Shown: positions 12,915 to 13,080 of the stretch, in pieces
Layout: every line of letters begins with the position of its first letter
Numbering within the stretch: the stretch's first letter is position 1
Origin: Escherichia coli
GTDB lineage: Bacteria > Pseudomonadota > Gammaproteobacteria > Enterobacterales > Enterobacteriaceae
Length of the DNA: 64,000 bases
Assembly: GCF_048403405.1 (NCBI RefSeq)
Contig: NZ_CP183129.1
Strand: one strand, 5' to 3'
Program-made: the position numbers and the translations under genes
The notes under the pieces: model-generated
The model's input: only the letters and a program-made list of their open reading frames with translations
Told to the model about the DNA's origin: nothing
The model's database searches: none

Positions 12915-12970
12915 TTCGTAGACAAACATGTTCACGTTTTGGAATTTGGACGTGCAATTGTGACGTGTAG

Positions 12971-12999
12971 ACGGGTGTTTACATATTGTGAACACCCGT
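12971..12999. promoter_or_regulatory. Inverted repeat (9-bp arms ACGGGTGTT / AACACCCGT, 11-bp spacer) upstream of the higB-like gene; candidate antitoxin operator
   Basis: Perfect 9-bp arms read directly from the sequence, about 80 bp upstream of the toxin ATG and followed by an AT-rich stretch (ctatagaaaaataaa). Confidence 0.4.
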
Positions 13000-13080
13000 G
13001 TGATCAACTACTATAGAAAAATAAATCCGAAGGAATGGTAGTCCAGGTTTAGTCATTCAGGCGCTAATAAGGAAGTTAAA

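Follow-up and report, generated by a model that had tools for sequence, protein, structure and literature searches.

A conserved 17-bp dyad as the predicted antitoxin operator of a HigBA-like toxin-antitoxin module between hycI and ascB in Escherichia coli

The hycI-ascB locus and its toxin-antitoxin genes

The window analysed here is a stretch of 64,000 nucleotides of E. coli DNA, of which the part from 12800 to 13900 shows 100% identity to strain TUM14771. In the order of the genes, hycE and hycI (12444-12914) are followed by a higB-like toxin gene, an antitoxin gene encoding a helix-turn-helix (HTH) protein and the convergent ascB. The toxin gene (13081-13392, plus strand; 103 aa) is named 'HigB family toxin' in RefSeq. 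Its product was assigned to the Pfam family HigB_toxin (PF09907, E 3.8e-23) and possesses 39% identical amino acids to HigB of strain K-12. A Shine-Dalgarno-like AAGGAAG (13069-13075, plus strand), read from the sequence, is located ahead of the ATG of this gene. The toxin gene overlaps with the gene of a HigA-like antitoxin (13389-13808, plus strand; 139 aa), a predicted repressor with a C-terminal HTH (Pfam HTH_3, PF01381, residues 85-138, E 2.1e-9). The antitoxin is 46% identical to HigA of K-12 (E 2e-45) and 45% identical to SehB of Salmonella, and the closest solved structures are those of HigA from K-12 and Shigella (PDB 5ifg and 5ycl; ~E 1e-35). Its DNA-binding domain is homologous to those of characterised HigA repressors. 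NCBIfam contained no family for either the toxin or the antitoxin. A GC-rich hairpin (13835-13859) lies between the antitoxin gene and ascB.

The locus is polymorphic in E. coli. Among 5426 complete genomes, 343 carry the 166-bp region upstream of the toxin gene (12915-13080) as it occurs in the window, and 748 carry a second promoter type with a different upstream region, which is preceded by an ORF of 253 aa. In the plasmid collection, the sole match to the 166-bp region was a record of 4.9 Mb, which is evidently a chromosome. Other E. coli genomes retain the antitoxin alone. In most genomes, including O157 and L004, hycI is followed by a short scar and then by ascB. If this empty site is compared to the window, the similarity ends at the hycI stop codon and restarts after the antitoxin gene, just before the hairpin at 13835-13859, which in the empty-site strains thus follows hycI and the short scar.

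The 253-aa hypothetical protein (WP_001026446.1; L002, 740-1501) is encoded between hycI and the toxin-antitoxin module in many E. coli, and its N-terminus resembles a signal peptide by eye. The empty hycI-ascB spacer of K-12 and O157 looks like a deletion scar, which consists of ~16 nt from the start and ~25 nt from the end of this ORF and joins the sequence downstream of the antitoxin gene at a common ACTGA (window, 12915-13860; L001, 716-838; L002, 716-2516; L004, 1616-1772). Since remnants of both ends of the ORF occur in the scar, the 253-aa ORF was lost in the empty-site lineage. Regarding higBA, insertion and deletion are indistinguishable at the empty sites.

At four loci, the toxin gene was lost together with the promoter and the operators, and the antitoxin was kept (L003, 740-951; L010, ~880-944; L014, ~1440-1501; L016, ~1427-1501). 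Each of them has its own breakpoint, with a toxin gene reduced to its last 25-75 nt; two of the breakpoints were seen in E. coli and one each in Kluyvera georgiana and Serratia sp. DD3. These loci represent orphan antitoxins without an operator of their own. Locus L010 (JAIJJM010000690.1) is a contig of 1.6 kb that was binned as 'Collinsella sp.'. Its antitoxin is 99% identical to that of E. coli and its flanks are of the E. coli type; this is probably a binning or contamination artefact.

The palindrome, its conserved core and the predicted promoter

Autoregulation via palindromes in the promoter is textbook knowledge for type II toxin-antitoxin operons. The earlier note had proposed such an operator upstream of the toxin gene, on the basis of a perfect 9-bp inverted repeat. 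Both arms of this repeat, ACGGGTGTT (12971-12979) and AACACCCGT (12991-12999), are exactly present with 11 nt between them. However, they are the outer portion of a longer palindrome (12971-12999) and not the constrained unit. In the window allele, the full palindrome consists of 13-nt arms, ACGGGTGTTTACA (12971-12983) and TGTGAACACCCGT (12987-12999), around TAT; according to the repeat finder, 12 of the 13 arm positions (92%) are complementary, with 3 nt between the arms.

When the 166-bp region was subjected to 5000 dinucleotide shuffles, 64 of the resulting sequences (1.3%) contained a perfect inverted repeat of 9 bp or more whose loop did not exceed 20 nt; across the 64-kb window, such repeats have 16 distinct centres. 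Palindromes with 12 of 13 paired arm positions and a loop of 3-8 nt occur just three times in 64 kb. The main palindrome exceeds chance expectation. The other two of the three (18809-18837 and 27652-27680) are GC-rich, belong to a GCCGGAT / GCCTGATG type and appear REP- or terminator-like by eye. For the main palindrome, an assignment to the REP/BIME-type repeats was rejected, as it is present at a single place per genome in the 343 E. coli genomes and has no further copy in the window.

The constrained part of the palindrome became apparent from an alignment of E. coli alleles, which comprised the window allele, three near-identical alleles, the 93%-identical allele of WL297 and the second promoter type. 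One block is common to all of them, GTGTTTACATATTGTGAA (12975-12992). Upstream of the toxin gene, the two promoter alleles share nearly nothing save this block and a -10 element exactly 15 nt past the dyad. The flanks in the second allele are unrelated to those in the window, which leaves a dyad of the form 7-3-7, GTTTACA-TAT-TGTGAAC. In a variant with 94% identity to the second allele, this dyad is kept, and the positions just upstream vary. In WL297, the right arm reads AATACTCGT with no compensating change in the left arm, and the last base of the core is changed from C to T (GAAC to GAAT); the core is therefore not strictly invariant. Conservation does not extend to the outer 6 bp of either arm. 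The outer ACGGG/CCCGT is specific to the window allele, mutated in WL297 and missing from the other E. coli allele as well as from all orthologs. A neutral origin of this outer extension, by template switching within a quasi-palindrome, is possible.

The conserved 17-bp core, here referred to as O1 (12977-12993, GTTTACA-TAT-TGTGAAC), is the predicted site for a dimer of the 139-aa antitoxin. Six of the seven positions of its half-sites are symmetric, and the half-site centres are 10 bp apart, which corresponds to one helical turn. O1 begins at -104 relative to the toxin ATG and ends 88 nt upstream of it. An exact match to GTTYACANNNTGTRAAC was found once in the 64-kb window, namely at O1, and in none of 100 shuffles. 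The site is located upstream of the first gene of the toxin-antitoxin operon and overlaps with the core elements of the predicted promoter.

This promoter was placed by conservation, as a scan for consensus promoters and terminators from 12700 to 14000 called no plus-strand promoter or terminator at the site. The putative -35 element TTGTGA (12986-12991, plus strand), deduced from the geometry of the orthologs, is part of the right half of the operator. The putative -10 element TACTAT (13009-13014, plus strand) lies 15 nt past the operator end and is separated from TTGTGA by a spacer of 17 nt. Together, both hexamers score 8 of 12, which is under the threshold of the scan. All orthologs possess TTGTRA, a 17-nt spacer and then a -10 element, and TACTAT of the window, which is followed by AGAAAAATAAA, aligns at equal distance with TATAGT, TATAAT, TATCAT or TAGAGT of the orthologs. 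The AT-rich, -10-like stretch that had been reported to follow the dyads is present, with TACTAT in it. Transcription would start at about 13021 and yield a leader of ~60 nt, which ends in AAGGAAG before the ATG.

In most orthologs, a second operator, O2, follows after the -10 element, at a position that corresponds to 13015-13031 in the window. No site is present there in the window; downstream of O1, even the closest match deviates from the motif at 6 positions. A pair of operators flanking the -10 element was accordingly not found; the best other match in the window, located upstream, shows 4 mismatches and lacks conservation. In the second E. coli allele, a remnant of O2 is retained after the -10 element, TATAGT-GTTCcgaACAtATAA-GGATAG, from which the right half-site TGTAAAC was deleted. 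In the window allele, the proximal operator O2 has decayed and the distal operator alone is left. Further single-site variants occur in Pantoea and Mixta, which have only O2, and in L017. From the O2-only loci of Pantoea and Mixta and the O1-only window it follows that either site alone appears to be tolerated. The missing O2 is treated here as a variant and not as an exclusion from the operator class.

The single dyad of L017 (~1150-1195) combines the spacer TAT, as in O1, with a downstream part of the O2 type and resembles the product of a 38-bp deletion by recombination between the operators. In two Pantoea loci without O1 (L024, ~1125-1150; L021, ~1130-1150), motifs similar to ATTGCCA...GGGCAAT precede the -10 element. 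They are like the half-site of the K-12 type, but may be due to chance.

A second, imperfect dyad rich in CACGT and ACGTG had also been suggested upstream of the main palindrome. In the region concerned (12930-12969), CACGT/ACGTG motifs are found together with a tandem pair of 13 nt and a weak pseudo-site, GTTCACGTTTTGGAATT (12930-12946). The 5-nt motifs CACGT (12933-12937) and ACGTG (12950-12954) do exist, as does another ACGTG (12963-12967), but they are at chance level and not conserved. With arms of 5 nt, which are altered in WL297 and missing from the other allele and the orthologs, this dyad was rejected as an operator. The pseudo-site was likewise dismissed; it deviates from the motif at 4 of 14 positions, is worse in WL297 and is read as chance or decay. 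About 0.1 such pseudo-sites are estimated to occur by chance in the region.

Orthologous cassettes and related HigA systems

A scan of one genome per species revealed 23 loci with related antitoxins, and a scan of viral contigs revealed 14 more. Antitoxins with 63-82% identical amino acids were found in Leclercia, Mangrovibacter, Kluyvera, Citrobacter, Phytobacter, Pantoea, Mixta, Yokenella, Hafnia, Pluralibacter, Salmonella prophages and IMG/VR contigs. The motif GTTYACA-TAW-TGTRAAC is present with zero mismatches upstream of nearly every intact orthologous toxin gene. The core recurs in this way at more than 20 loci in other genera and prophages. Typical orthologs have two copies at a distance of 38 bp, the first starting at position -73 and the second at position -35 relative to the ATG; the -10 element (TATAGT, TATAAT, TATCAT or TAGAGT) is located between them, 15 nt past the first copy and directly before the second. 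In a set of 36 loci, every exact match to the motif lies upstream of a toxin gene and none elsewhere. Over 30 sites, the information content amounts to 2 bits at each of the 12 fixed positions of the core and to at most 0.7 bits in the flanks. The three spacer positions, although not conditioned in the search, are still conserved as T, A and W. Within the 166-bp region of the window, similarity to any of the ortholog loci is confined to 12975-12994; the orthologous operons have retained the site and not its surroundings.

The orthologous cassettes of Salmonella, Cronobacter phage JK004, Leclercia, Kluyvera, Pantoea and others share the 17-bp dyad and the spacing of the promoter with the window, and the recognition helix is identical or nearly so. 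Most of them possess O1 and O2 and a short leader, with the second dyad starting ~35 nt before the ATG. In contrast, the window possesses O1 alone, ~104 nt ahead of the ATG, together with the allele-specific extension of 6 bp per arm.

Several orthologs of the module, in Salmonella (CP034702.1, L033), in L034, L035 and L038-L045 and in Cronobacter phage JK004 (H72), are located among phage-type genes such as those for holin, tail assembly, YdaS/YdaT and transposases, one of them on the sequenced Cronobacter phage. The phage-type neighbours and the copy in phage JK004 indicate that the cassette is mobile and often borne by prophages. Because orthologous cassettes are mobile, they are not fully independent samples, and part of the conservation is due to shared ancestry. 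As a full explanation of the conservation, shared ancestry is argued against by the randomised flanks. An identity of the module with sehAB or sehCD was rejected on account of the prophage-like surroundings of the Salmonella ortholog and the low identity of SehB (45%).

Dyads of the same geometry occur upstream of paralogous systems. In K-12, the region upstream of higBA contains CCGTTGCCA-ATC-TGGCAACGG (GTTGCCA-ATC-TGGCAAC) and ATTGCCA-ATT-TGTCAACGG (ATTGCCA-ATT-TGTCAAC). Upstream of sehAB of Salmonella, GTTTTCA-ACT-TGAAAAC and ATTTTCA-GGT-TGAAAAC are found 38 bp apart, with TAAATT between them. The geometry GTTnnCA-N3-TGnnAAC is therefore common to the window, K-12 higBA, sehAB and further relatives on viral contigs. 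Like the window, K-12 higBA (ygjNM) is a toxin-first operon with a C-terminal HTH in HigA and upstream dyads of the form 7-3-7, and the closest relatives in the PDB are its solved HigA and HigBA structures. It differs in its half-site, which is GTTGCCA and not GTTYACA, in having two dyads 29 bp apart instead of one, and in its chromosomal locus. The K-12 higBA promoter was mapped and is repressed by HigA, for which the inverted repeats were regarded as putative sites of binding (PMC2814082).

The sehAB operon of Salmonella Typhimurium (STM4031/STM4030) has two dyads of the form 7-3-7, 38 bp apart, which bracket the -10 element, a layout as in the orthologs of the window module. Unlike the window, its half-site is GTTTTCA, both operators are intact, and SehB has 142 aa. 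In gel shifts, SehB bound to a fragment of its own promoter (PMC7160566). The publication from which sehAB, sehCD and their promoter palindromes originate (PMC3868539; PLoS Pathogens, 2013) is marked as retracted. Later papers still cite it for operator binding by SehB. The support from sehAB was therefore drawn from papers of 2020 and 2026 and not from PMC3868539.

Differences in the half-sites are accompanied by differences in the recognition helix, which is GSKSMVSRVL in K-12 HigA, GSKSLVSQIL in the antitoxin of the window and GSKSNVSNIL in SehB. A GSKSL(V/I)S helix occurs together with GTTYAC in the window family, in Hafnia (63% identity), in a 59%-identical protein from a viral contig and in a 42%-identical protein of the Desulfuromonadales. 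The GSKSMVSRVL helix is associated with GTTG(C/A/T)C in K-12 and three relatives on viral contigs, and the GSKSNVS helix with GTTT(T/C)C in SehB and two relatives on viral contigs. This points to a central dinucleotide that may track the residue after GSKS in the recognition helix, as a correlation over about ten lineages rather than a proven code. A search of the literature found no relevant account of an operator code for the HigA family.

The higBA operon of Proteus vulgaris Rts1, a system that PMC12266136 deals with, is also toxin-first, and its HigA represses via two inverted-repeat operators in the promoter, O1 and O2. The HTH of Rts1 HigA is N-terminal (PMC6987408). The architecture thus differs from that of the window antitoxin with its C-terminal HTH, and the operator sequences show no detectable relation. 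The Rts1 system is analogous to that of the window and stands outside its subfamily.

Alternative explanations and proposed function

The footprint in the orthologs, the dyad geometry of the paralogs and the fixed position relative to the -35 and -10 elements all support the proposal that the palindrome serves as the autoregulatory operator of the antitoxin. The constrained element is, however, the inner 7-3-7 dyad at 12977-12993 and not a pair of 9-bp arms with an 11-nt gap. Very likely, the HigA-like antitoxin of 139 aa, whose gene lies 400 bp downstream, uses O1 as its operator. In the library searched, no paper was found with the operator strings, the RefSeq protein accessions or the combination of hycI, ascB and a toxin-antitoxin locus; O1 seems to be a site undescribed until now and is an ordinary representative of the HigA-type operator class.

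The palindrome could also act as RNA, replacing or adding to the operator, if a 13-bp hairpin terminated or stabilised the 3' end of the hyc mRNA or limited read-through into the toxin gene. As RNA it is stable (-21.6 kcal/mol, z = -3.6), read-through is plausible as there is no terminator between hycI and the toxin gene, and a perfect 6-bp outer extension, ACGGGT/ACCCGT, is improbable by chance (estimated at ~1 in 4000). In addition, the two C-to-T changes in the right arm of WL297 face G and would retain G-U pairs, but two transitions are too few for covariation. The stem is not followed by a U-tract (tail GUGAUCAACUAC), and no terminator was called. The outer arms are missing from the other E. 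coli allele and all orthologs, which retain the core, and the dyads of the orthologs occur as two copies in unrelated contexts with no extended stem. A search of Rfam gave no match at E <= 1 on either strand from 12700 to 14000. Overall, a role as RNA appears unlikely. The special case of a hycI terminator, which the earlier note had named as the alternative to an operator, is unlikely as well. A Rho-independent terminator was rejected here, since the stem is present but its tail, GTGATCAACTAC, lacks a U-tract and the scan calls none. Moreover, the whole 166-bp region is missing from the empty-site strains, so that it is not the ancestral hycI terminator; these strains carry, shortly after hycI, the hairpin that lies downstream of the cassette in the window (13835-13859). 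A combination of both functions, in which an operator extended by 6 bp on each side into a 13-bp hairpin would be antitoxin operator and RNA insulator at once and compensate for the lost O2, is improbable. If it were true, the hairpin would mark or stabilise hyc 3' ends or damp anaerobic read-through into the toxin gene.

As the cassette is decaying in many lineages, the site could be partly a relic. O2 has decayed, many E. coli genomes have lost the toxin gene, the promoter or the entire cassette, and the predicted -10 element is weak. That O1 is merely an operator inherited with the cassette, which has no regulatory role left in a decaying locus, or a neutral palindrome, is nevertheless quite improbable. 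Two E. coli alleles have kept the core unchanged within promoters that diverged heavily and with indels, the coding genes are intact and about 96-97% identical in both alleles, and an intact toxin gene requires the controlled co-expression of the antitoxin. The exact match to the motif of the orthologs rules out that the site arose by chance. It is very improbable that the dyad is bound by another host regulator or serves as a recombination site of the cassette. The similarity of the two E. coli promoter alleles does start exactly at the dyad, and the cassette is mobile and occurs on prophages. The motif, however, accompanies the antitoxin gene from host to host and changes along with the recognition helix, and it is found at a fixed distance from the -10 element, usually in two flanking copies. 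A comparison by eye with the CRP and FNR consensus sequences revealed no resemblance.

For the antitoxin operator as the preferred explanation, we infer binding, promoter hexamers, transcription start and repression from the sequence comparisons as follows. A dimer of the antitoxin, possibly together with the toxin, would place its two C-terminal HTH motifs on the two 7-bp half-sites of O1. As the right half-site contains the putative -35 element TTGTGA, the bound antitoxin would cover this element and exclude RNA polymerase. The operon would thereby repress itself, and loss of the antitoxin would de-repress it.

This analysis provides a precise predicted operator of 17 bp for the HigBA-like module of E. 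coli, Salmonella prophages and a Cronobacter phage. The natural single-operator variants could be used to measure the contribution of each operator. If the rule that links recognition helix and operator holds, it would explain how paralogs of the K-12 HigA, SehB-like and window types could coexist without cross-repression.
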